Source: Leucoraja erinacea (lineage: Eukaryota). Taken from it: a DNA stretch of 64,000 nt. Below the pieces are notes generated by a model. The model was given only the letters and a program-made list of their open reading frames with translations. It was not told where the DNA came from and made no database searches. The translations under genes and the position numbers were made by a program. The DNA is taken from the NCBI RefSeq assembly GCF_028641065.1, contig NC_073403.1:24490001-24554000 (forward strand), read 5' to 3'. How positions within the stretch are numbered: the first letter of the stretch is position 1; each line of letters opens with the position of its first letter. This document shows, in pieces, positions 3,395 to 62,870 of this stretch.

Positions 3395-4445
3395 ACAGAC
3401 ACAAAATTGGCTTGGTGGAAGGAGTCAGAGGGTTGTTTTTCAGATTGGAGGCTTGTGACCGATGGTGTGTCATTAGTTTTTCATTGCTAAATCCCTGTTT
3501 TTTGGCATTTATTAACAGTTTGGATGAGAATGTAGGTGGTATGATTAATGAGTTCGCAGATGACACCAAAATTGATGGTGTAATGGACAGTGAAGTAGGT
3601 TACAACAGGGACTGGACCAAATGAAAAAGTGAGCAAAATAATTGCCGATGGGATTTAAGTCAGACAAGTACAAAGTGATGCTTTTTGAGACAGTGAACCT
3701 GAACAATAAAGTTGATGGCAGGACCCTGGAGAGTGTGGAACTGAGAGACCTTGGGATACAACCACATATTTCCTTGAAAGTGGCAACACAGTTATACAGG
3801 ATGATGAAGAAGGTGCACGGTGGGTTTGCCTTCATCGGTTGGGGCACAGAGTACAAGGGTTGAGATGTCCTGTTACAACTTTGTATGACAGAGGTGAGAC
3901 CAGATTTGGAGTATTGCATGCAGTTCTGGTTACCATGCTGTAAGAAAGACCTGATTGAAATAGAGAGGGTGCAGAAAAGATTAATTCACAAAGATGTTGC
4001 TGGAGGGCTTGAGTTGTAAGGAGAGACTGGATAGATGGGAACTTTTTCTCTGGAAATAAAGAGGCTGAAGGGTGACCTTATTGAAGCATTAAACCATGAA
4101 GGGCATTGTTTAGGTGGATGGTCACAGTTTTTTTCCCCAGAGTAGAGAATCTAAAACTAGAGGCCATAGGTTGGTGGTAAGAGAGGAAATATTTAAAGGC
4201 ATCTGAGGGGCATGTTTTTCACACTGAGAGTAGCAGATATGTGGATCGCTTTGCCAGAGAAAGTGGGAAAGACTGGAACAATTATGAAGAGATTATAAAA
4301 GCATTTGAATATATACATGGTTAGGAAAGGTTTAGAGGAACATGGCCAAAATGCAAGATAATGGGACTGGCTCAGTTTGGCACTTTAGTTGGCATGGATG
4401 AGTTGGACCCAAGAGCCCATTTCTGTGCTGTTTAACTCTATGACT
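3395..4445 (+). mobile_element. CR1 LINE, degenerate 3' RT region and tail
   Basis: FINSLDE..FADDTKI, RDLG, LEYCMQFW motifs with stops; CR1 tail ..GCCCATTTCTGTGCTGTTTAACTCTATGACT. Confidence 0.9.
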
Positions 4446-4517
4446 ATCTCACATTTGATTCACTGGGGTGGCACAGATTTGCAGCAGTAGAGTTGCTGCC
4501 TCACAGCACCAGAGACC

Positions 4518-6701
4518 CAGGGCCAGATTTAGGTGAAGAGAGGCTCTAGGCTATTCCATTTGTGTGGCCCCTGCCAATCCCCCACCCCCACGATGAGAGG
4601 AAGACGGAAGAGTCCACCTGATCCACCAATATGCAGCCGAGCGTGGCCAATGAGATAAGGGCTGGAAAGCTGAGCTTTTTATTTATTGCCAGTGTTAGTG
4701 TCGAGTTATCGCCTTAAAACGCTATTATTCTGAATTGGAGGGCAAGGAAAATTACTGAAGTGTTGTTTAGAGACTACATTGCGTTGTGACAGCATATATA
4801 AGAAAGGCCTATGATAGTGTCAAAAATATTATACACCAGGCCCGTATGAAACTTTTCAAAAAGGTGGGAGGCATGGCAGGATTACAAAAAATGTATGTGA
4901 AATAAGTGCAACAACAACAACAACAACAGACATTTATTATCACATACACCAATTGGTGTCGTGAAATTTGATTTGCCATTGCAGCACACAAATAAAAATA
5001 AGACACAACATTAAAGAATTTAACAATAAACATAAAAACATCTCCCACAATGGTACCCACTGTGAGGGAAGGCAGCAAAGTCCAGTCCTATCCCCTGTTC
5101 ACCCATGGTCGGGCCTATTGTGCCTCTGCAGTCGCCGCTTCAGCAGCCCGATGCTTCAGGCCCTCTCACCGGATGATGGAACTCCGGCATCAGAAGAACA
5201 CTCTCAGCGGCTTGGAGTGTCTGGAGCGGCCGCTTCCTCCCCGGAGACCACGGCTCCCGAAGACCACGGGCCGCGCTGGTCTGAGCTCCGACACTGACGA
5301 CCTCGGCGTGCGATTCCAGGCTCCACGATGTTTAAAGTACAGCGCGGCCCGCGGCTGGATGCCCGCAGCCACAGCTCCTCGGATGTTGGAGTCGGCGGTC
5401 TCAGCACTCTGGAGCCCACCGACCCAGGTAAGGCATCGCCCACTCCACGATGGTGCTTCAGTGCTCTGCCGCTGTTCTGGCAGGAAAACGCAAGGAAGGG
5501 GCGAAAATACGGCTCTGAGAAAAGCCGCATCTCCGACCAGGTAAGGACTGAGAAAAATAGTTTCCCCCTTTCCCCCCCCCCACCCCCCACACAAAAAAGA
5601 CTAGAAGACCTCGAAAACAAACACTTTTAACTCATAACTGCACGCAGCACATATCACAAGCACGAAGCTCAAAGACCCTTGCGGCCAGCTTAAGGGCCCT
5701 GGAAGCTCTGGTACATTCTGAGCCTTATTTTGGATCATTTTTGCGCCAAATTTATGGCCAATATTTCAGAAATAATTTTGCTTGAGTCAAGAGTAATGAG
5801 TAGTTGGAATGGGATGATTGGGGTCATTGTTGTATACATTTTTTTTAAATCAAGAATTGAAGCTGTCCTTGTTTTAATAATCAAGTTGTACTGTAAAATT
5901 TTATGTAAAATGTTATAAAGGAGCATGCAAACAATGCAAATAAAATACTGTAAGTTTTTGCAGTAAATAAAACCATTTTTTAGAAAATGTTTTGTGTGTT
6001 GATTTGATTGCGTGTTACTGTTCGACTGTGTTAGTGTGTGCACATTAAAAATATGATGCAAAATAAAAGTCACAAACTATGGAATACATATTTTTCAGTA
6101 TTGTTATCAAGGAAAAGAAAGCAGTTACAATTGTTTGATATTATTCATATGGAGGAGAAAATATAATTGCTCTAAAACCTACCTTAATTTTGCAATCTCA
6201 CTAAAGATAATCCCCCTTTCCCTCTCCCTCTCCTCCTTCCCCCTCCCCTCCCTCCCTCCATCTCTCCCTCCCTCCCCCGCAGCGAGGCTCCGACTCCCAC
6301 AGACAGCGAGCCCCCCCCGGGCCAGAGAAATGGGCACTCCGCAACGCAATATTCCACTACTTACCAGACACCTAGGATCCGCACGAGGCCCCCCCCCCCC
6401 CCCCCGCCCGGGCCCACCGGCCCGGAGAGACAACGTCGCCACTCCCGCTTCCCCCAACGCAATGGTCGCAATTTTTATCCCACTACTTCCAGTGGGCCAG
6501 AACCAGAAGTGGTAACCTAGCGATCAATTTTTTTTTTAGACACGAGGATTTTGACTTGGCTGAAAAAAACCCTTGGCTAGATTTTGAGGCCCTAGGCTTC
6601 AGCCTATGAAGCCTGTAGGTAAATCCGGCCCTGCTGAGGTCCCCCTAGATCTCGAGGCTCTAAGCTTAAACTTGTGAAGTTTATACGTAAATCCGGCCCT
6701 G
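4518..6701. mobile_element. Non-autonomous TIR DNA transposon, probably hAT
   Basis: Left end CAGGGCCAGATTTA; right ends TAAATCCGGCCCTG at 6620-6633 and 6688-6701; no transposase ORF; no TSD visible. Confidence 0.7.
4911..5633 (-). mobile_element. Structured non-autonomous retroposon (copy 2), nested in the hAT-like element
   Basis: TSD ATAAGTGCA (4902-4910) and ATAACTGCA (5634-5642); tail TGATAATAAA plus (GTT)n; shared hairpin domains. Confidence 0.75.
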
Positions 6702-7685
6702 ACTGTGGGTGCTGTCTGTATGGAGTTTTACGTTCTCCCTGTGACGGTGTGGATTTTCTCCGGGTGCTTCAATTTCCTCCCACATTCCAAAGGCGTATAG
6801 ATTTGTAAGTTAGTTGGCTTCAATAAAGATTATAACATTTTAGTTTACAGTGTGTTTGTTGGTTGGCATGGATTCGGTGGGCCGATGGGCCTATTTCCGT
6901 GCTGTATCTCAAAAGTTTAAAGTCACTCCAGCATTGGCTTGTATATGGAACAAACATACGGAGGAGGTAGTTGAGGCAGTTATTATCATAACGTTAGAAG
7001 CATTTGAACAGTTACATAGATAGGATAGGTTTAGAGGAATATTGGCCAAACGCGTGCAGGTGGGACTAGTGTAGATGGAGTATAGTTAGTGGAGTGGGCT
7101 AGTTGGGCCACTGTTTTCATGCTGTATGACTACGATGTTAATGTTGTAAAAAGTGGAGAAATCCTGCATGTTGAAAGGAAATAATTGCAAATAAGACAAC
7201 ATTCAATGCAGTGCCAAAAAATTCTCATCCAAATAACAGTTAGCTGATCTTTATTATGCCATGGATCTTCACCAGCCAGCTAAATTCACTTTATGTCAAA
7301 TGATAAAGCGTGAAGATATAAAGATGATACTGCATTAAACATGATCTACAAATAATTTTTAAATTGTAATCTTTTTATTATTGTCTTCATGCATATACAG
7401 TATGAAATGTTCCCTGTAATTATAACTCAGTCATGAATTGTTTGTTTTCTTGTTTTGCATAAACTATTTGGAACATTGAATTAAGTTTGACATAATGTTC
7501 CATTATTTTTTAAGATAGCAGTGATGGTTTATGATCACATTCAATAAATTTAATAGCTAAAAGCAATTACCAGACAAGGTTTATGATAATTCCGCCAATA
7601 TCAACAGAGCCTTACCAGAACCAGTTTAAGGAAAGTCATTCTCACAAGTAAGGTCACTTAAAAGTGATCTAAACACGAGAGATAA

Positions 7686-7980
7686 TTTAGTTTAGTTTAT
7701 TGTCACGCAGAGGAACAGTGAAAAGCTTTTTTGTTGCTTGCTATCCAGTCAGCGGAAAGACGATACTTGATTACAATCAAACCATCCGCAATGTGCAGAT
7801 AAGGATAAAGGGAATAACTTTTAGCACAAGATAAAGTCCAGTAAGGTCCAATAAAAGCTAAGACAAGGGTCTCCAATGAGGTAAATGGTAGGTCAGGACC
7901 GCTCTCTAGTTGGTAATAGGATGGTTCAGTTGCCTGATAACAGTTGGGAAGAAACTGTCCCTGAATCTGGACGTGTGCGC
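7686..7980 (-). mobile_element. Rex1/Babar-type 3' tail element (duplicated at ~12440-12740)
   Basis: Reverse strand encodes RFRDSFFPTVIRQLN, followed by a 3' UTR ending TGACAATAAA(CTAAA)n. Confidence 0.75.
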
Positions 7981-8174
7981 AAAGTGAAAGCCTCTGAGAG
8001 GCATGAAACCAATATCATTCTTACAGCAGACGGCACAGAAAATAAAGACACTAGGAACTGCAGATACTGTCTCACAAAAAAAGACACAAAGTGGGCTGGA
8101 GTAACTCAACGTGTCAGGCAGCATCTCTGGAGAACATGGATAGCTGATTTTTCAGGTCAGGACCCTTCTTCAAC

Positions 8175-9109
8175 TAGAATTTAGAGGATTGAGGGGGGAT
8201 CTGATAGAAACATACAAAGTTCTTAAGGGGTTGGACAGGCTAGTTGCAGGAAGATTGATCCCGATGTTGGGGAAGTCCAGAACAAGGGATCACAGTTTAA
8301 GAATAAAGGGGAAATCTTTTAGGACTGAGCTGAGAAAAACCTTTTTTTACACGACAGTGAACCTGAACAATAAAGTTGATGGCAGGACCCTGGAGAGTGT
8401 GGAACTGAGAGACCTTGGGATACAACCACATATTTCCTTGAAAGCGGCAACACAGTTATACAGGATGATGAAGAAGGTGTACGGTGGGTTTGCCTTCATC
8501 GGTTGGGGCACAGAGTACAAGGGTTGAGATGTCCTGTTACAACTTTGTATGACAGAGGTGAGACCAGATTTGGAGTATTGCATGCAGTTCTGGTTACCAT
8601 GCTGTAAGAAAGACCTGATTGAAATAGAGAGGGTGCAGAAAAGATTAATTCACAAAGATGTTGCTGGAGGGCTTGAGTTGTAAGGAGAGACTGGATAGAT
8701 GGGAACTTTTTCTCTGGAAATAAAGAGGCTGAAGGGTGACCTTATTGAAGCATTAAACCATGAAGGGCATTGTTTAGGTGGATGGTCACAGTTTTTTCCC
8801 CCAGAGTAGAGAATCTAAAACTACAGGCCATAGGTTGGTGGTAAGAGAGGAAATATTTAAAGGCATCTGAGGGGCATGTTTTTCACACTGAGAGTAGCAG
8901 ATATGTGGATCGCTTTGCCAGAGAAAGTGGGAAAGACTGGAACAATTATGAAGAGATTATAAAAGCATTTTAATATATACATGGTTAGGAAAGGTTTAGA
9001 GGAACATGGCCAAAATGCAAGATAATGGGACTGGCTCAGTTTGGCACTTTAGTTGGCATGGATGAGTTGGACCCAAGAGCCCATTTCTGTGCTGTTTAAC
9101 TCTATGACT
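8175..9109 (+). mobile_element. Chimeric CR1 created at the duplication junction (8352/8353)
   Basis: Frame RGDLIETYK..RKTFF jumps back to TVNLNNKVDGRTLESVELRDLG of the other CR1 copy. Confidence 0.85.
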
Positions 9110-9181
9110 ATCTCACATTTTATTCACTGGGGTGGCACAGATTTGCAGCAGTAGAGTTGCTGCCTCACAGCACCAGAGACC

Positions 9182-11456
9182 CAGGGCCAGATTTAGATGA
9201 AGAGAGGCTCTAGGCTATTCCATTTGTGTGGCCCCTGCCAATCCCCCACCCCCACGATGAGAGGAAGACGGAAGAGTCCACCTGATCCACCAATATGCAG
9301 CCGAGCGTGGCCAATGAGATAAGGGCTGGAAAGCTGAGCTTTTTATTTATTGCCAGTGTTAGTGTCGAGTTATCGCCTTAAAACGCTATTATTCTGAATT
9401 GGAGGGCAAAGAAAATTACTGAAGTGTTGTTTAGAGACTACAGTGCGTTGTGACAGCATATGTAAGAAAGGCCTATGACAGTGTCAAAAATATTATACAC
9501 CAGGCCCGTATGAAACTTTTCAAAAAGGTGGGAGGCATGGCAGGATTACAAAAAATGTATGTGAAATAAGTGCAACAACAACAACAACAACAGACATTTA
9601 TTATCACATACACCAATTGGTGTCGTGAAATTTGATTTGCCATTGCAGCACACAAATAAAAATAAGACACAACATTAAAGAATTTAACAATAAACATAAA
9701 AACATCTCCCACAATGGTACCCACTGTGAGGGAAGGCAGCAAAGTCCAGTCCTATCCCCTGTTCACCCATGGTTGTGCCTATTGAGGCCTCTGCAGTCGC
9801 CGCTTCGACAGCCCGATGCTTCAGGCCCTCTCACCGGATGATGGAACTCCGGCATCAGAAGAACACTCTCAGCGGCTTGGAGTGTCTGGAGCGGCCGCTT
9901 CCTCCCCGGAGACCACGGCTCCCGAAGACCACGGGCCGCGCTGGTCTGAGCTCCGACACTGGCGACCTCGGCGTGAGATTCCAGGCTCCACGATGTTTAA
10001 AGTACAGCGCGGCCCGCGGCTGGACGCCCGCAGCCACAGCTCCTCGGATGTTGGAGTCGGCGGTCTCAGCACTCTGGAGCCCACCGACCCAGGTAAGGCA
10101 TCGCCCACTCCACGATGGTGCTTCAGTGCTGTGCCGCTGTTCTGGCAGGAAAACGCGAGGAAGGGGCGAAAATACGGCTCTGAGAAAAGCCGCATCTCCG
10201 ACCAGGTAAGGACTGAGAAAAATAGTTTCCCCCTTTCCCCCCCCACCCCCCACATAAAAAAACTAGAAGACCTCGAAAGCAAACATTTTTAACTCATAAC
10301 TGCACGCAGCATATATCACAAGCATGAAGCTCAAAGACCCTTGCGGCCAGCTTAAGGGCCCTGGAAGCTCTGGTGCATTCTGAGCCTTATTTTGGATCAT
10401 TTTTGCGCCAAATTTATGGCCAATATTTCAGAAATAATTTTGCTTGAGTCAAGAGTAATGAGTGGTTGGACTGGGATGATTGGGGTCATTGTTGTATACA
10501 TTTTTTTTAAATCAAGAATTGAAGCTGTCCTTGTTTTAATAATCAAGTTGTACTGTAAAATGTTATGTAAAATGTTATAAAGGAGCATGCAAACAATGCA
10601 AATAAAATACTGTAAGTTTTTGCAGTAAATAAAACCGTTTTTTAGAAAATGTTTTGTGTGTTGATTTGATTGCGTGTTACTGTTCGACTGTGTTAGTGTG
10701 TGCACATTAAAAATATGATGCAAAATGAAAGTCGCAAACTATGGAATACATATTTTTCAGTATTGTTATCAAGGAAAAGAAAGCAGTTCCAATTGTTTGA
10801 TATTATTCATATGGAGGAGAAAATATAATTGCTCTAAAACCTACCTTAATTTTGCAATCTCACTAAAGATAATCCCCCTTTCCCTCTCCCTCTCCTCCTT
10901 CCCCCTCCCTCTCCCTCCCCCCCCTCTCTCTCCCTCCCACGCAGCGAGGCTCCGACTCCGCGCCACAGACACCGCAGCCCCCCCCCGGCCCAGAGAAATG
11001 GGCACTCCCGCAACGCAATATTCCACTACTTACCTGGAGTAGACACCTAGGATCTTCGGTAGACACGAGGCATCATGATTGTGTGGAGTGCAAATGGAGA
11101 TCTGAACCCGCCCGGGCCCACCGCGCACGTGCGGATAGACAGCGTCATTTTGCGTCGCCACTGCCTCACTGGCTTCCCCCAACTGCGCAGGAGCGGATGG
11201 TCGCAATTTTTATCCCCAAAACTTCCAGTGGGCCAGAACCAGAAGTGGTAACGCAGATAGCGATCCAATTTTTTTTTTTTTCTCAGGATTTTTTTTACTC
11301 TGGGGAAAAAAACACCTTGGCTGGAAGCCCCCTAGATTTTGAGGCCCTAGGCTTCAGCCTATGAAGCCTGTAGGTAAATCCGGCCCTGCTGAGGCCCCCC
11401 TAGATCTCGAGGCTCTAAGCTTAAACTTGTGAAGTTTATACGTAAATCCGGCCCTG
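9182..11456. mobile_element. Second copy of the hAT-like element
   Basis: Same TIRs and double right end as 4518-6701. Confidence 0.7.
9575..10295 (-). mobile_element. Duplicated copy of the structured retroposon at 4911-5633
   Basis: Near-identical sequence with the same TSD. Confidence 0.75.
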
Positions 11457-12933
11457 ACTATGGGTGCTGTCTGTATGGAGTTTTACGTTCTCCCTGTGAC
11501 GGTGTGGATTTTCTCCGGGTGCTTCAATTTCCTCCCACATTCCAAAGGCGTATAGATTTGTAAGTTAGTTGGCTTCAATAAAGATTATAACATTTTAGTA
11601 TACTGTGTGTTTGTTGGTTGGCATGGATTCGGTGGGTCGATGGGCCTATTTCCGTGCTGTATCTCAAAAGTTTAAAGTCACTCCAGCATTGGCTTGTATA
11701 AGGAACAAACATACGGAGGAGGTAGTTGAGGCAGTTATTATCATAACGTTAGAAGCATTTGAACAGTTACATAGATAGGATAGGTTTAGAGGAATATTGG
11801 CCAAACGTGTGCAGGTGGGACTAGTGTAGATGGAGTATAGTTAGTGGAGTGGGCTAGTTGGGCCACTGTTTTCATGCTGTATGACTACGACGTTAATGTT
11901 GTAAAAAGTGGAGAAATCCTGCATGTTGAAAGGAAATAATTGCAAATAAGACAACATTCAATGCAGTGCCAAAAAATTTGCATCCAAATAACAGTTAGCT
12001 GATCTTTATTATGCCATGGATCTTCACCAGCCAGCTAAATTCACTTTTTGTCAAATGATAAAGCGTGAAGATATAAAGATGATACTGCATTAAACATGAT
12101 CTACAAATAATTTTTAAATTGTAATCTTTTTATTATTGTCTTCATGCATATACAGTATGAAATGTTCCCTGTAATTATAACTCAGTCATGAATTGTTTGT
12201 TTTCTTGTTTTGCATAAACTATTTGGAACATTGAATTAAGTTTGACATAATGTTCCATTATTTTTTAAGATAGCAGTGATGGTTTATGATCACATTCAAT
12301 AAATTTAATAGCTAAAAGCAATTACCAGACAAGGTTTATGATAATTCCACCAATATCAACAGAGCCTTACCAGAACCAGTTTAAGGAAAGTCATTCTCAC
12401 AAGTAAGGTCACTTAAAAGTGATCTAAACACGAGAGATAGTTTAGTTTAGTTTATTGTCACGCATGCGGAGGAACAGTGAAAAGCTTTTTTGTTGCTTGC
12501 TATCCAGTCAGCGGAAAGACGATACTTGATTACAATCAAACCATCCGCAATGTGCAGATAAGGATAAAGGGAATAACTTATAGCACAAGATAAAGTCCAG
12601 TAAGGTCCAATAAAAGCTAAGACAAGGGTCTCCAATGAGGTAAATGGTAGGTCAGGACCGCTCTCTAGTTGGTAATAGGATGGTTCAGTTGCCTGATAAC
12701 AGTTGGGAAGAAACTGTCCCTGAATCTGGACGTGTGCGCAAAAGTCAAAGCCTCTGAGAGGCATGAAACCAATATCATTCTTACAGCAGATGGCACAGAA
12801 AATAAAGACACTAGGAACTGCAGATACTGTCTCACAAAAAAAGACACAAAGTGGGCTGGAGTAACTCAACGCGTCAGGCAGCATCTCTGGAGAACATGGA
12901 TAGCTGATTTTTCAGGTCAGGACCCTTCTTCAA

Positions 12934-13349
12934 CTAGAATTTAGAAGATTGAGGGGGGACCTTATAGAAACTTACAAAATTCTTAAGGGGTTGGACAGGC
13001 TAGTTGCAGGAAGATTGTTCCCGATGTTGGGGAAGTCCAGAACAAGGGGTCACAGTTTAAGGATAAAGGGGAAATCTTTTAGGACTGAGCTGAGAAAAAC
13101 ATTTTTTACACAGAGAGTGGTGAATCTCTGGAATTCTCTGCCACAGATTGTAGTTAAGGCCAGTTCATTGGCTATATTTAAGAGGAAGTTAGATGTGGCC
13201 CTTGTCGCTAAAGGGATCAGAGGGTGTGGAGAAAAAGCAGGTAGAGGATACTGAGTTGGATGATCAGCCATGATCATATTGAATGGCGGTGTAGGCTCGA
13301 AGGGCCGAATGGCCTACTCCTGCACCTATTTTCTATGTTTCTTTGTTTC
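12934..13349 (+). mobile_element. CR1 LINE 3' end, relatively young
   Basis: Open frame RGDLIETYKILKGLDR..SRTRGHSL..FFTQRVVNLWNSLP..FKRKLD; tail AAGGGCCGAATGGCCTACTCCTGCACC plus TTTCTATG repeats. Confidence 0.92.
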
Positions 13350-34048: not shown

Positions 34049-34237
34049 CTAGAATAAGTGGACATGTTCACAGGGGAGGGCTGGTCCCCCAACGCAATAT
34101 TCCACCTTTCCACCAATTCCAATATTGCTGGCCAGTGGGAGGGGGGGGACTTTCTGAAGCGCTAGTATGGGTGTTGTGGGCAGAAGGGACTGGTTTCCTG
34201 AGGGCTAGTATGGACATTGTGGGCCGAATGAGTTCCT

Positions 34238-34462
34238 GGGCTGGCAGCTCAGTCACTCAGGCCTGGTGGGCTGGCAGCTCAGTCACTCAGGCCTGATGGG
34301 CTGGCAGCTCAGTCACTCAGGCCTGGTGGGCTGGCAGCTCAGTCACTCAGGCCTAGTGGGCTGGCAGGTCAGTCACTCAGGCCTGATGGGCTGGCAGCTC
34401 AGTCACTCAGGCCTGATGGGCTGGCAGCTCAGTCACTCAGGCCTGGTGGGCTGGCAGCTCAG
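34238..34462. repeat. 30-bp minisatellite, ~7.5 copies
   Basis: GGGCTGGCAGCTCAGTCACTCAGGCCTG(G/A)T, near-perfect copies with no spacers. Confidence 0.97.
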
Positions 34463-34734
34463 AAACTGCCAGAAATTCTGCCCAAAAGAGATGAGAGACT
34501 GTGAGAGAGAACGGGGAGAGGGTGGAGAATCAATTTTAGGCATTTTTCATTTTTTCTGCTGATCACAGCAATGGAGGAGGAAAGTCTACCCTGGCCTGGA
34601 TCTCACAGGGAGCAAATGAAGGGAGGGAGAAAAATACTGGGATGAGGTTTAATACTTACTGATGGGCCAAAGGGACTCCTGGGCTAGTACATGCTAGTAA
34701 TAGGGGGTCTTGTGGGCTGAAATTAGTGGTTTCA

Positions 34735-35300
34735 GGCAGGCCAAACAACACATTTAATTTAATTTCCAATTGCATTGCAGTTTCAAGCACAGGGCAGGCC
34801 AAATAGCTCATTGCATTTTCATTTCACTTCCATTGCCATTGCAGTTTCAAGCACAGGGCAGGCCAAGCCAAACAGCTGATTGCATTTCCACTTAATTTCC
34901 ATTGCCATTACACTTACAAGCATAGGGCAGGCTTAAGCCAAACAGCTGATTGCATTTTCATATTACTTCCATTGCCATTGCCATTTCAAGCAAAGGGCAG
35001 GCTCAAGCCAAACAGTTAATTGCATTTTCATATTACTTCCATTGCCATTGCACTTTCAAGCACAGGGCAGGCTCAAGCCAACCCGCTCATTGCATCTTCA
35101 CTACATTTCCATTGCCATTGCAGTTTCAAGCACATGGCAGGCTCAAGCCAAACAGCTCATTGCATTTTCATTTCATTTCCATTGCGGTTTCAAGCACAGG
35201 GCAGGCCCAAGCCAAACAGCTCATTGCATTTTCACTTCATTTCCATTGCCATTGCAGTTTCAAGCACAGGGCAGGCCAAACAACTCATTTCATTTTCATT
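34735..35300. repeat. ~60-70-bp tandem repeat inside Helitron B
   Basis: Unit GCAGG(CTCAAG)CCAAACAGCTCATTGCATTTTC..CCATTGCCATTGCAGTTTCAAGCACAGG, about 8-9 copies. Confidence 0.92.
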
Positions 35301-46226: not shown

Positions 46227-48899
46227 ATTTCCTTCGCTCCATAGATGCTGCTGCACCCACTGAGTTTCTCCAGCTTTTTTGTGTAACCTTCGATTCTCCA
46301 GCATCTGCTGTTCCCTCTTAAACGCAGAATATGTATTATTTTGTGCAATTAAAATATCAAATTTTAACTCAGGTTTAGATATACTGTAGTCTTCAAATTA
46401 GGTTCTGACTTAATCATGTCACATATTGGATGTGGACATATTTATTAAGCGCATTACAGAATATGATTCAACTGGATGCACTTATGCAAAATCTTGTCGT
46501 GCAACACATGAAGTAACAGTTTTTTGCAATAAATGATTTAGGATAATATATACTATTCCAGAACTCATCAAGGACAATTAAAAGCATAATTTATACCGTA
46601 ATTACTGACTTATAATACTAAATCAAAGCATAGCTTCAAACAATTCCTCAAATTATGTTTTTAATGCTGATTTTTCTTGAAGCCATGGTAGCAAGTAGTT
46701 GAAAGCATGATAGAAATGTCAATCAAACTAATCATTGTAACTAACTCATGGTTCATTAAATATTTATGGAAAGCTAAATGATCAGAATATTATGCTTATA
46801 TATTTGCAGACTTTGCCTGCATCTATTTTCAGTGATACGTTACAGAACATCGTTGTACTCTGTGGACTGCTCGATTGTAATCATGTATAGTCTTTCCGCT
46901 GACAGGTTAGCATGCATCAAAAAGCTTTTCACTGTACTTTGCTACGCATGACAGTAAACTAAACTAAAATAAATTAGAGATATACACAATAAGCTGGAGT
47001 AACTTCTGCAGCACAGGCAGCACCCCTGACAGAAAGAGCAATGGTTGGGCCAGGCAGCAGCAGCAGCAAGAGCGGAAATCCTACTCAGAAACATCGACAA
47101 GAAGATGAACCCACAGTGGTTGAATTTATAGATTACATTTTGATTTTTATCTTTTCATAACAAAGAGATGATTTTGAGAGACTTAAGACCAAAAAAAAAA
47201 TGATTTTAGATATTTTAGTCATCATCTAAATTCTCGATGTCAAGGTTGTTCCTAATTGTGTATCAGACAATAATTATCCATAGCAGCACAGTTTACATGA
47301 TTATCGATTGAAAACACTTCGAAGTGCCCTGTCTCCTACTTTCAAACGGACTTCAAGGATAAAAAAAAGTGCTGAAATCGCTCAGCGGGTGAGGCAGCAT
47401 CCCTGGAGTGTATGAATAGGCGGTGTTTCTGGTTTTGTTCCTTCTTCAGACTTCAAGGATACATTTTTTTCAGAACAATAGGGATGTTAAACTGAATATT
47501 CCACTGGGGTTTGAGAGAAATTATCTTCATGGCGATGATCAGTGTAAGCATCAAGTAAAAACAAGCACTGTTCAGCAACTTTCACCTTTTTTTCCATGTA
47601 ATGAAGTCTTTTTATTTTGTGTTGTTATTCTATTGTTAGTTGGTAATGATAGAATTGCAAGACCTTTTTTTAAAGGAGCCTCGCACCTTTCTACCACTTT
47701 AATGTGGATGAAATAATACATAAAACGCAATCAGTAATGTACAATATTACGATGAAAATCTAACATTTCCACTTCATAGATTCATTCTATCTGGTGGTTT
47801 CTTTGCCTGTTGTGAATTATGCAGTTCTGTTTGGAATGGAACTTCACTAGTAGTTGATCAAGTCTCTTTACAAGTTGTGTTCCCCTTCATTACACCCATT
47901 TCAGAGCTGAGTATTTTCTGCACTTTGTGTTTTGATTTTAGATTTCCAGAAACTGCAATTTAGTTTTATTTTCACATCTAAAGCCAAATGCTAATGTCCA
48001 TTATTCAACATCAATATTATTATTTTTTTTTTATATATCACTGATTTTGTTGGTGTGGAGGAGAATATCTAACTGCAGGGTTGTGGATGGTGTGGTAAGG
48101 TGTGGTAACTGAGGAAGGGTTTGATTGTGAGGGCAGGGCCATTGACCCTGAAGTGAGGGAACAACAGATAGACTTCCGGGAGACATTCATGGCTCCGCCT
48201 TGGCTATCAGCAACATGTGTAAAGGAATTTCTTCTGGATTTAAAATCAAAATCTGCAGATGCCAAAAATCTGAAGTAAAAACAGGTCAGGTAGCAAGTTT
48301 GGAAGTGAACAGTTCAGGTTCAAGAGTTTTCATCAAAACTGGGAAAGATAGAAAATAGATTGCAATTTTATGTTGCAAAGAGAGTGTAATGAATCGAGTC
48401 GTATGCACGGCAAGATATAACACACTTATTAAAATCCACTTACAGCATTGCTCTGCAGGACACTGCAGTAACTAGCAGCTACTCAGACTGAATTACATAG
48501 GGAAGCTTTTGTTAATATAAATTGCATATTAGGCGGAGCAACTACTAACAAGCACTACAATTGGTTAGTAGGGAATAACCAATCTACATCTTTCCTTGTA
48601 AAAACAAAATGAAGCATAGATACGTGGAAACACGGTGGCTAAACAATATAGTAGTCGGAACTTTAATAACGCATATGGGGAAGTATAGATAGTTACACAA
48701 AATCACCGTATCTAATGGGTGGCTACTGATCCGTCCGGCATGTATCCAGTACGATTCCGCATCTCCTCCTTTCACCGATGAAGTGACTGGGGAGGTAACC
48801 GAGGATGTGACCGGGGACCGACCGGGTGGAGGTGGTGAAATAGGCGAGGTAGGCGCTGCGTGCCATGGGGAGGCCGCGGGGGGCACAGTCTCTGATAGT

Positions 48900-49094
48900 T
48901 GTAGATTGGCTATTTCCTACTAACCAATTGTAGTGCTTGTTAGTAGTTGCTCCGCCTAATATGCGATTTATATTACCAAGAGCTTCCCTACGTAATTCAG
49001 TCTGAGTAGCTGCTCATTACTGCAATGTCCTGCAGAGCAAGATTTTAATAAACATATGTTATATCTTGCCGTGCGTACGACTCGACTCATTACA
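48900..49094 (+). repeat. Third LTR, inverted relative to the host element
   Basis: TGTAGATTGG..AATAAA..CATTACA is the reverse complement of the flanking LTRs. Confidence 0.95.
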
Positions 49095-49120
49095 TGGTGT
49101 CAGAAGTGGGATTTGAACCC
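49095..49120 (-). other. 26-nt copy of the 3' end of a mature tRNA-Leu, including CCA
   Basis: Reverse complement GGGTTCAAATCCCACTTCTGACACCA versus vertebrate tRNA-Leu(CAA) ..GGGTTCGAATCCCACTTCTGACACCA (recalled), one CpG-type mismatch. Confidence 0.8.
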
Positions 49121-49299
49121 AGGATGTGGATTCGTACCGCACACGTGCCGGACTGATCAGTAGGCCACCTTTAGGTATGGTGATTTTGTGTGACTATCTA
49201 TACTTCCCCATATCGTTATTAAATTTCCGGCTACTTCCCCATATGCGTTATTTAAGTTCCGGCTACTATATTGTTTAGCCACCATGTTTCAAGTCGCTA

Positions 49300-49652
49300 A
49301 TAAAACATTCTATCGGCTTGCCAACTTGTTGCATACGAGCATAAAACTTGGTACGTTCAATGATATAGTTCAAGGGGAGTCACACAACTGTCTAAACTTT
49401 GCAAGTAGGACAGCAGGTCATCAATCGTTTCTGCAGGCACTTGGAACAGCAGGCTCAAAAGTAAAACAATCCGTATGTTTCATTGCCTCAGGACCAGCCA
49501 GGTTCAGTAACACAGAAGCACGTACATCTGGAGGAACGTTGCGATGAACAATGCAAACCTAGTGAATGTAGTCGCGCTCGAAAAGGTGCCAGCATTCAGC
49601 AATGTCAGAATCAAAGATCAGAGGACTAGGACGGCAAGACGAGTTTGCTATG
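49300..49652 (-). pseudogene. Gypsy gag N-terminal remnant
   Basis: Manual translation: RPSPLIFDSDIAECWHLFERDYIH*VCIVHRNVPPDVRASVLLNLAGPEAMKHTDCFTF. Confidence 0.7.
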
Positions 49653-50529
49653 ATAGAGATAACAGGCACATAAAACAAATATAAAAAACAAATCCCGATA
49701 AACATGAACGGAGTAGGTAAGACTCACTTCTTGACACCATGTAATGAGTCGAGTCGTACGCACGGCAAGATATAACACATGTTTATTAAAATCCACTTAC
49801 CGCATTGGTCTGCAGGACATTGCAGTAACTAGCAGCTACTCAGACTGAATTAGGTAGAGAAGCTCTTGGTAATATAAATCGCATATTAGGCGAACTACTA
49901 ACAAGCACTACAATTGGTTAGTAGGAATTAACCAATCTACAGAGAGTAAGGAGGAGGCTTGATATGGCAAAGGGGATGTACCTGATAGTGTGTTGGACAA
50001 TTTACAGAGCCATCTGGTTAAAAGATTAATAAGTGTAGTTTGAAGGAAAGAAGACATCGAGTGCTGGAGTAGCTCAACGGGTCAGGCAGTATCTCAGTAG
50101 AACATGGATAGCTGACGTTTTGGGTCGGTACCCTTCATTAGGCTGAATGGAAAAAAAACATGCAAAAGGATGTGTAAAGCTGTGAAAAGTAACCCAGTTG
50201 CCAAAACGTGCAAACTAATGGAAAATACTGGAAATGATGAGTAAATCAGGCAGTGGATGTGGAGGGAGGAAAAAAACAGTTAAAATTACAGATTGCAAAA
50301 CAGGCTACTTCTGATACAAACTGAAAAAGCATCTTCACTGAAATGTCTCAATGCTACAATGCAAAGGCTTCCGCTTATCTAGACAGAAGATGAGGTACTC
50401 ATATTTTCATACAACGAGAGGAGGCATTTGAGTTCATTGCATCAATGCTGTCTCTCAGCTCATTCCCATCAATCCCTCTCTCTCATTTACTTCTCACTAG
50501 TCTATTCTCTCTCCAATGCTCATCAACTT

Positions 50530-61948: not shown

Positions 61949-62870
61949 TCTATATAAATAAAAGTCTCATCTTGACCACTTCCTGTATATTGCGCTGCAT
62001 ATTGATTTTAGAACAACTGCTACCCTATATCACTCTGATTTTTTGGCTATCTTACTCACAGTCCTCCTAAGGCAGTCCCGAGGATTTTTCCGATCGATGA
62101 AAAATGAAAAAATTATGAGTGTTTAAAAAATCTTAAGATCAGCTGATTGGTCCTCTCGTCTGTCAATCACTATGATGAAGGTAACGCCCCTTCCGGGGGG
62201 CAGGACTATAAAACCCTGGATGCCTGGACATGAGTCAGTGACTCTGGAAGATCATGAGGGAGAGGCCACAACTGTGATTTTAAGCTGTCAATTAACTGAA
62301 CTGTGAGTCTGCAATGTACTTGCAATAAATGATTTGTTAGCCCTTAATAACAATGCAATGATTTGTTTGGCCTGCCCTGCCTGTGCTTGAAACTGCAATG
62401 CAAATTTGGAAATGAAATGACAATGCCATGAGTTGTTTGGCCTGCCCTGCATGTGCTTGAAACTCCAATGCAAAATTGGAAATTAAATGACAATGCCATG
62501 AGTTGTTTGGCCTGCCCTGCCTGTGCTTGAAACTCCAATGCAAAATTGGAAATGGAATGACAATGCCGTAAATTATTTGGCCTGCCTTGCCCATGCTTGA
62601 AACTACAATGCAAAATTGAAAATGAAATGACAATGCCATGAGTTGTTTGGCCTGCCCTGCCCGTGCTTGAAATGGATTGACTTGACTTGACTTGAAATGG
62701 ATTGCCTTGACTTGAAATGGATTAACTTGACTTGAAATGGATTAACTTGACGTGAAATGGATTGAAATGGATTGTTGGACCTACACTCACGGAACTTGAC
62801 TTGACCCACAACACCCATGCTAGAGCTCCAGAAATCCACCCAACTGGAAAATTGCTTAAATTGGATACCT
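61949..62870 (+). mobile_element. Non-autonomous Helitron family B (3' end lost), with a ~60-bp tandem repeat at ~62350-62670
   Basis: Starts TCTATATAAATAAAAGTCTCATCTTG; homologous to the reverse complement of 34120-35498. Confidence 0.7.
62146..62240 (+). promoter_or_regulatory. Pol II promoter-like cassette inside Helitron B
   Basis: ATTGG 62146-62150, CTGTCAATCA 62160-62169, GCCCCTTCCGG, TATAAAA 62207-62213, TCAGT with its A 30 nt after the TATA start; motif evidence only. Confidence 0.45.

Follow-up and report, generated by a model that had tools for sequence, protein, structure and literature searches.

How does a run of tRNA complement come to stand directly behind an internal LTR in a skate retroelement, and does it record the chemical state of the primer from which it was copied? 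The first-pass annotation of the 64,000-nt stretch of Leucoraja erinacea DNA analysed here (the window, part of NC_073403.1 in the 2.19-Gb assembly GCF_028641065.1) had proposed that plus-strand strong-stop synthesis copied a tRNA-Leu primer past A58 and that the product was then joined to a wrong internal site. With a probability of roughly 0.8, we favour a mechanism in which a permissive reverse transcriptase (RT) reads through the modified primer, the product undergoes a mis-targeted transfer, and the resulting DNA is integrated. All of the steps are variants of chemistry already known. The locus by itself is a modest case, and what matters is the population of such copies.

A tRNA-Leu complement inside a rearranged LTR element

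The tract (49095-49120, plus strand) directly follows the CA end, at 49094, of a full TG...CA LTR that we call LTR_B. It is complementary to the last 26-27 nt of mature tRNA-Leu, from CCA through the acceptor strand and the T-arm to position 51/50, and runs past A58, with the templated base opposite that position; the 27th base, at 49121, may equally come from the landing site. An 18-mer of the tract has one match in the window, with 0.07 expected. A 5' exon search of the genome found 13 tRNA-Leu(CAA) genes, all intron-bearing and none encoding CCA, and the complete genome list of loop-spanning matches contains one further gene-like locus. The tract matches seven of the 13 genes, those of the A57 type, over 27/27 nt, four others over 19 nt, and two divergent genes over 5 and 9 nt. 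The sequence as first read, its place behind the LTR, and the origin of its extra bases in the tRNA primer beyond position 58 are thus borne out; the match extends beyond 18 nt, whereas a match ending there had been named as arguing against this origin. Leu-CAG genes share the same 3' end, and 27 nt cannot separate Leu-CAA from Leu-CAG, the A57/CpG position aside, a point that goes beyond the earlier description. The A57-type base of the tract could also derive from CpG decay of the G57 type. Run without introns, ARAGORN detected no tRNA gene, either in the window or among 35 loci. When introns were allowed, it recovered the gene in locus L038 but misplaced the intron and misnamed the gene, and the gene structure was therefore read from the 13 aligned genes.

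The tract sits inside a rearranged LTR element whose host portion lies on the minus strand between identical 5-bp target-site duplications (TSDs; 48380-48384 and 49942-49946). Along the minus strand, the TSD copy at 49942-49946 is followed by the 5' LTR (LTR_A, 49740-49941), a short primer-binding site (PBS, 49739-49725), a leader and stop-broken 5' gag remnant that reaches to ~49286 (49286-49724), an inverted block, the pol 3' end with the 3' untranslated region and polypurine tract (PPT; 48589-48899, the PPT ending at 48589), the 3' LTR (LTR_C, 48385-48588), and the second TSD. The inverted block, read on the plus strand, comprises LTR_B (48900-49094), whose TG end abuts pol with 0 microhomology, the tRNA complement, and a landing segment (49122-49290) that copies the last ~25 codons of pol and then the 3' untranslated region. 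A ~31-nt tandem duplication (49201-49235 / 49232-49267) lies inside the landing segment, and the block joins gag through a 6-nt microhomology (49285-49290). The tract is accordingly continued by the element's 3' end, a wrong internal site, as had been proposed; the inversion of LTR_B and the tract relative to the host is an addition to that description. The host element carries the Ty3/Gypsy hallmarks of TG...CA LTRs, PBS, PPT and a short TSD. Its sister copy L181 encodes RVT_1, RT_RNaseH, Integrase_H2C2 and rve in Ty3/Gypsy order, and the window copy, which is without ~3.5 kb relative to sister copies, lacks the pol region concerned.

The LTRs bear on the history of this arrangement. LTR_A and LTR_B are 4.2% different, and LTR_C is ~7% from both. 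Compared with 71 other LTR copies, LTR_B has its closest relative at 6.2% and a median distance of 11.8%, and medians across comparisons are 12-14%. These divergences favour one parent for the host element and LTR_B, and the clean junction of the TG end with pol is like an integrase join. We consider it somewhat more probable than its converse that the architecture is the product of one event; the tRNA-bearing LTR piece would most likely have entered a sister cDNA from the same parent in inverted orientation, via an integrase-type join at the TG end, either before insertion or shortly afterwards. Between the two 3' internal copies of the window element, 16/113 nt (14%) differ, which exceeds its LTR divergence and is left unaccounted for under a single parent. 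This difference would agree with a history, concerning the local architecture only, in which a small LTR-tRNA-3'end-LTR copy was inserted later in reverse and a subsequent deletion removed the second LTR and ~3.5 kb; the clean join at the LTR end and the 6 nt of microhomology on the opposite side of the block would fit as well. We regard this two-step history as possible but rather unlikely, because LTR_B is nearer to LTR_A than to any of the 71 other copies, which points to one parent and one time.

Elsewhere in the window, a near-identical tandem duplication (3689-13040; ~4.7 kb spacing, 95-99% identity) is either real or an assembly artefact, and minisatellite arrays with 30-nt and 70-nt units occupy 34177-35277 and 62346-62695, respectively. 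At least 13 copies of a ~83-nt SINE-like repeat, which presumably resembles skate and shark SINEs, are scattered across the window, often as inverted pairs.

Copying errors and end points in the genome-wide population

The window element's own PBS (49739-49725, minus strand) pairs with tRNA-Leu over 8 nt, carries an extra A, pairs over a further 6 nt, and then gives way to leader and gag, in agreement with the ~14 nt reported before. The same design recurred among unselected junctions with this type of LTR end, sampled as the first 30 of 225 matches: 21/30 have a PBS that pairs exactly over 8-14 nt and is followed by leader, so that a 26-nt PBS is not the normal state of the family. Nine of the 30 have at least 18 nt and six at least 23 nt; a by-eye count over the first 100 listed junctions gave ~19 with at least 23 nt. 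The short PBS retains bulges and mismatches, which would be as expected, by analogy, for a PBS that is not renewed from the tRNA. Ty1 and Ty3 are described as behaving in this way in the portions available of PMC5371799 and PMC7472051.

Over-long tracts are numerous, and the description of the window copy as a rare record did not hold. A 22-mer spanning A58 has 216 exact matches in the genome, a pattern requiring at least 34 nt of tRNA complement found 297 loci genome-wide, and the 6/30 unselected junctions with at least 23 nt tell the same story. The trinucleotide ACA followed by the 18-mer gave 740 matches; among the first 100, inspected by eye, 56 read through and 44 stop at 18-19 nt (two are ambiguous, and some of the 44 may belong to families with an 18-nt PBS). 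For closer analysis we used 99 loci from the first 100 matches of the 34-nt pattern, which come from contigs 1-6 only, are selected for a length of at least 34 nt and exact flanks, and include one duplicate pair and a few fold-backs. The tract directly follows a CA end in 94/99, and the loci fall in 40 LTR clusters with shared junctions in just two pairs. The window copy is atypical of this population in its length of 26-27 nt, at which few other tracts end, its templated base at position 58, its landing microhomology of at most 1 nt, and its inversion within the host.

The base opposite A58 is T in 54 of the 99 tracts, A in 33, C in 7 and G in 5. Position 58 is thus mismatched in 45/99, against 7/396 at four neighbouring non-CpG sites (Fisher p ~1e-28). 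In loci whose LTR pair has at least 97% identity, the mismatches number 10/25 (1/100 at the neighbours); at 99% they number 3/12 (0/48), and below 93% 14/23, so that on these small numbers the misread rate may differ with age or family. The locus at G000:C7:26530068 has a one-base deletion at position 58 rather than a substitution. A second hot spot is the C that precedes the final U in the variable loop; this C is misread in 44/61 tracts that extend past it. The complete genome list, counted by eye, has this C misread in 43/55 non-gene matches (A 33, T 6, C 4) and intact in 13/13 genes. As a positive control, Leu-CAG tracts misread it in 3/3 cases, and it is present in 12/13 Leu-CAG genes. 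At the corresponding C, Leu-CAG and Ser of human and zebrafish have m3C47d/e2 according to the accessible text of PMC5066629 and PMC11417395. The skate tRNA-Leu(CAA) tracts display the combination of RT mismatch and stop that such a mark would leave; the accessible text of PMC11574265 and PMC13023127 has no passage on a Leu-CAA variable-loop modification.

End points tell a similar story. They fall just before loop C, at 34-36 nt, in 25/99 tracts, a count to which the 34-nt cut-off contributes, and immediately ahead of G37, at 47-53 nt, in 26/99; 0/99 match beyond G37. In the unbiased list, 3 of the 55 non-gene matches reaching position 38 clearly continue as spliced tRNA and 2 do so partly, and none continues for more than 4 nt as intron. 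A dedicated search found six genome matches that cross G37, two of them near-identical; 3/6 misread G37 and two end exactly before G26. The spliced form is present in 6/6 of these, but the search pattern specified it. With CCA present in the tracts, though encoded by no gene, and the intron removed, the template was mature tRNA. Human tRNA-Leu gives mutation or stop signals at m1A58, m1G37 and m2,2G26 in the available portion of PMC5066629. Taken together, copying errors and end points cluster at tRNA positions that are likely to be chemically modified, and we infer the identities m1A, m3C, m1G and m2,2G from position and from other species. Two other causes were considered and rejected. CpG decay does not apply to position 58 or loop C, neither of which lies in a CpG (CpG sites have 4-19 changes per 99), and isodecoder diversity is at odds with the presence of A58 in all genes found and of loop C in 13/13.

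Several loci deserve separate mention. L068, L116, L117 and L246 pass from tRNA complement into the tRNA sense strand, as if the cDNA had folded back or switched strong-stop DNA. L089 (G000:C2:3734095-3734165) has two tRNA tracts in tandem behind a single LTR; they differ in the base at position 58, which points to two separate primer molecules. Seven tRNA-Leu(CAA) genes with A57 form a tandem cluster at G000:C12:6.29-6.33 Mb (L163-L169). The base matching this cluster occurs in just 7/99 tracts, a level that CpG decay could give, and six of those seven misread position 58; the cluster seems to be little used as a primer.

State of the primer and fate of the product

The most likely reading of the errors and end points is that the primer was modified and misread by a permissive RT. 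A short, bulged PBS would not be renewed from the tRNA, and the first, tRNA-bearing strong-stop DNA would normally be a dead end, as in Ty1/Ty3. RT would stop at m1A58 (18 nt) or cross it, inserting a wrong base about half the time, would cross the modified variable-loop C with ~75% error, and would nearly always stop at m1G37, the rare survivors stopping at m2,2G26. The 3' end of the tract would then anneal through a few bases to either the minus or the plus strand of the element itself and be extended, and the product, a deleted or inverted element, could still be inserted by integrase. This scheme builds on tract identity, copy number, occurrence in many LTR families, the short family PBS, scattered landing, TSDs and the position-specific mismatch and stop pattern, all of which are observed directly.

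The first-pass annotation had offered two causes for the passage of position 58, a hypomodified primer or a permissive RT. If primers without m1A58 were the main cause, the fossils would record under-modification, and the templated base at position 58 in 54/99 tracts and in the window copy would agree with this. Loss of m1A58 relieves the stop in HIV systems (PMC8599865), and m1A58 is substoichiometric on some tRNAs (PMC8062790), as far as the available parts of these papers report. Passage of position 58 is, however, not error-free in the population, and misreading in 45/99 is not expected from an unmodified A. Moreover, tracts with the templated base misread loop C in 23/32 cases and still stop before G37, which indicates that their primers were mature and otherwise modified. 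We therefore judge hypomodification improbable as the main cause; it may help to explain the tracts with the templated base, but not the mismatches. Of the two proposed causes, hypomodification is disfavoured as the general one by the 45/99 tracts misread at position 58 and the 44/61 misread at loop C, which fit a permissive RT acting on a modified primer. The templated base fits correct insertion opposite m1A as well as an unmodified primer. Because it carries this base, the window copy alone is uninformative about its own primer, and the record of primer modification state that had been claimed for it lies in the population of tracts instead.

The tracts are joined to many places in the element. 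Gypsy internal sequence follows the tract in 75/99 loci, compared with 10/99 in an upstream control; 62 of these loci continue in sense and 13 in inverted orientation, with landing sites distributed over the length of the element. In the remaining 24/99, the sequence behind the tract has no match to Gypsy. For the 47/99 loci with a donor copy, the mean junction microhomology is 2.6 nt, against 0.45 in a shifted control that is too lenient and understates chance, since the end-point rule adds chance matches. A second LTR lies within 4 kb in the same orientation in 53/99 loci and inverted in 3, with none in 43. Among 42 LTR pairs with callable ends, a 5-bp TSD is exact in 19 and has one mismatch in 6 (25/42), and 17/42 are without a clear TSD. 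A group of 18-nt strong-stop copies (L191, L237-L245, L012 and L013) lands recurrently at a few antisense protease/RT sites; 12/12 of those examined, which were chosen for recurrence, are inverted, whereas the long tracts are mostly sense (62/75). The landing sites resemble the tract end strongly at three sites and weakly at the site used most often. To explain these recurring junctions, amplified non-autonomous families were weighed against landing hot spots, and the latter were preferred after comparison of 10 small loci.

RTs are able to jump onto free 3' ends, and the genome is SINE-rich. The tracts might on these grounds be pieces of tRNA-derived SINEs or retropseudogenes, or free tRNAs acquired by template jumping, rather than the covalently attached primer. 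Such an origin is contradicted by the data and very improbable: the tracts start exactly at CCA right after the LTR CA in 94/99, the TSDs flank the whole element and not the tract, and only the cognate tRNA-Leu exceeds chance. With a tRNA-agnostic pattern, 86 of the first 100 matches are tRNA-Leu, and non-Leu matches occur at about the chance rate (by eye).

That the family or a sister subfamily simply inherits a long PBS, like the primer over-extension sequence of lentiviruses, whose complementarity extends beyond 18 nt (PMC13191261, in the portion available), is contradicted by the evidence and can be given next to no weight, despite the recurrence of certain 18-nt junctions on different contigs: 8-14-nt PBS followed by leader prevail (21/30), fixed extra complementarity leading into the leader was not found in intact copies, 0/9 of the unselected junctions with at least 18 nt enter the start of the leader, the 99 long-tract loci comprise 97 different junctions, and those 18-nt junctions that recur lie in antisense orientation within pol, several of them at sites resembling the tract end.

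Significance and comparison with known systems

We consider it probable that Gypsy-rich vertebrate genomes with tRNA-Leu-primed elements hold a natural, datable library of tRNA modifications, which the RT of these elements wrote in cells of the germ line or the early embryo. Among PBS junctions of this LTR type, about 1 in 5 would be an integrated "dead-end" strong-stop product, and the errors would reveal m1A58, m1G37 and m2,2G26 together with an m3C-like loop mark in tRNA-Leu(CAA) that we did not find reported. RNA modifications normally leave no trace in DNA; such copies would report primer modification and RT fidelity from any assembly, and could be read by family and by age (LTR divergence), including in species without tRNA sequencing. 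A modified variable-loop C in tRNA-Leu(CAA) is a direct prediction. The findings further suggest that the second strand transfer is the source of a sizeable share of Gypsy copies with internal deletions. A literature search, with most subscription papers outside its reach, did not turn up any account of read-through copies that are integrated in a genome and bear modification signatures.

Whether m1A58 is the plus-strand stop in vivo has been argued mostly from reconstituted HIV reactions (PMC8599865), as judged from the available text; PMC6088434 sets out the standard model. The skate genome holds hundreds of natural insertions in which stop and read-through stand side by side and the RT error spectrum is preserved, so that the strong-stop question becomes countable in genomes. 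HIV-1 (PMC8599865, PMC13191261, PMC1785368, each in the portion available) resembles the skate element in stopping at 18 nt, in reading through past A58, and in a further stop at modified position 37. Its minor read-through products end at positions 55, 54 and 37 (PMC8599865, PMC13191261); the long ones are described as non-functional and unable to complete transfer (PMC8599865, PMC13191261) or to integrate (PMC8599865), and one provirus survey reports no extra tRNA sequence (PMC1785368). The HIV-1 products come from in vitro reactions and cell culture, whereas the skate copies are germ-line insertions, have no stop peak at 54/55, and preserve misincorporation.

Modification-sensitive tRNA sequencing offers a second comparison. 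In the accessible passages of the DM-tRNA-seq, mim-tRNAseq and tRAM-seq papers (PMC5066629, PMC8062790, PMC11417395), signatures appear at A58, the variable-loop C, G37 and G26 of tRNA-Leu, the positions seen here. In the skate, the copying enzyme is the RT of the element itself, at work in vivo, and genomic insertions take the place of sequencing reads. Our loop-C signature is found on Leu-CAA, whereas the text available from those papers (PMC5066629, PMC8062790, PMC11417395) refers to Leu-CAG and Ser only.

Yeast Ty1 and Ty3 are close parallels in strategy. The accessible text on their dead-end plus-strand strong-stop DNA and PPT recycling (PMC5371799, PMC7472051) describes the features shared with this Ty3/Gypsy-type element, namely a short, unrenewed PBS and a first product that runs into the primer. 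The yeast product stops after 12 nt and is described as accumulating in particles as a dead end, whereas the skate products reach from 18 to ~70 nt and are integrated, many with a TSD. For the inverted block of the window, the autointegration inversions of Ty1 and of Arabidopsis SISYPHUS (PMC7197481, in the portion available) are the nearest likeness, with an LTR end joined precisely to inverted internal sequence of the same element. Those products are extrachromosomal circles, known in the plant from particles, whereas the skate block is part of an element that sits in a chromosome and has two outer LTRs and a TSD.
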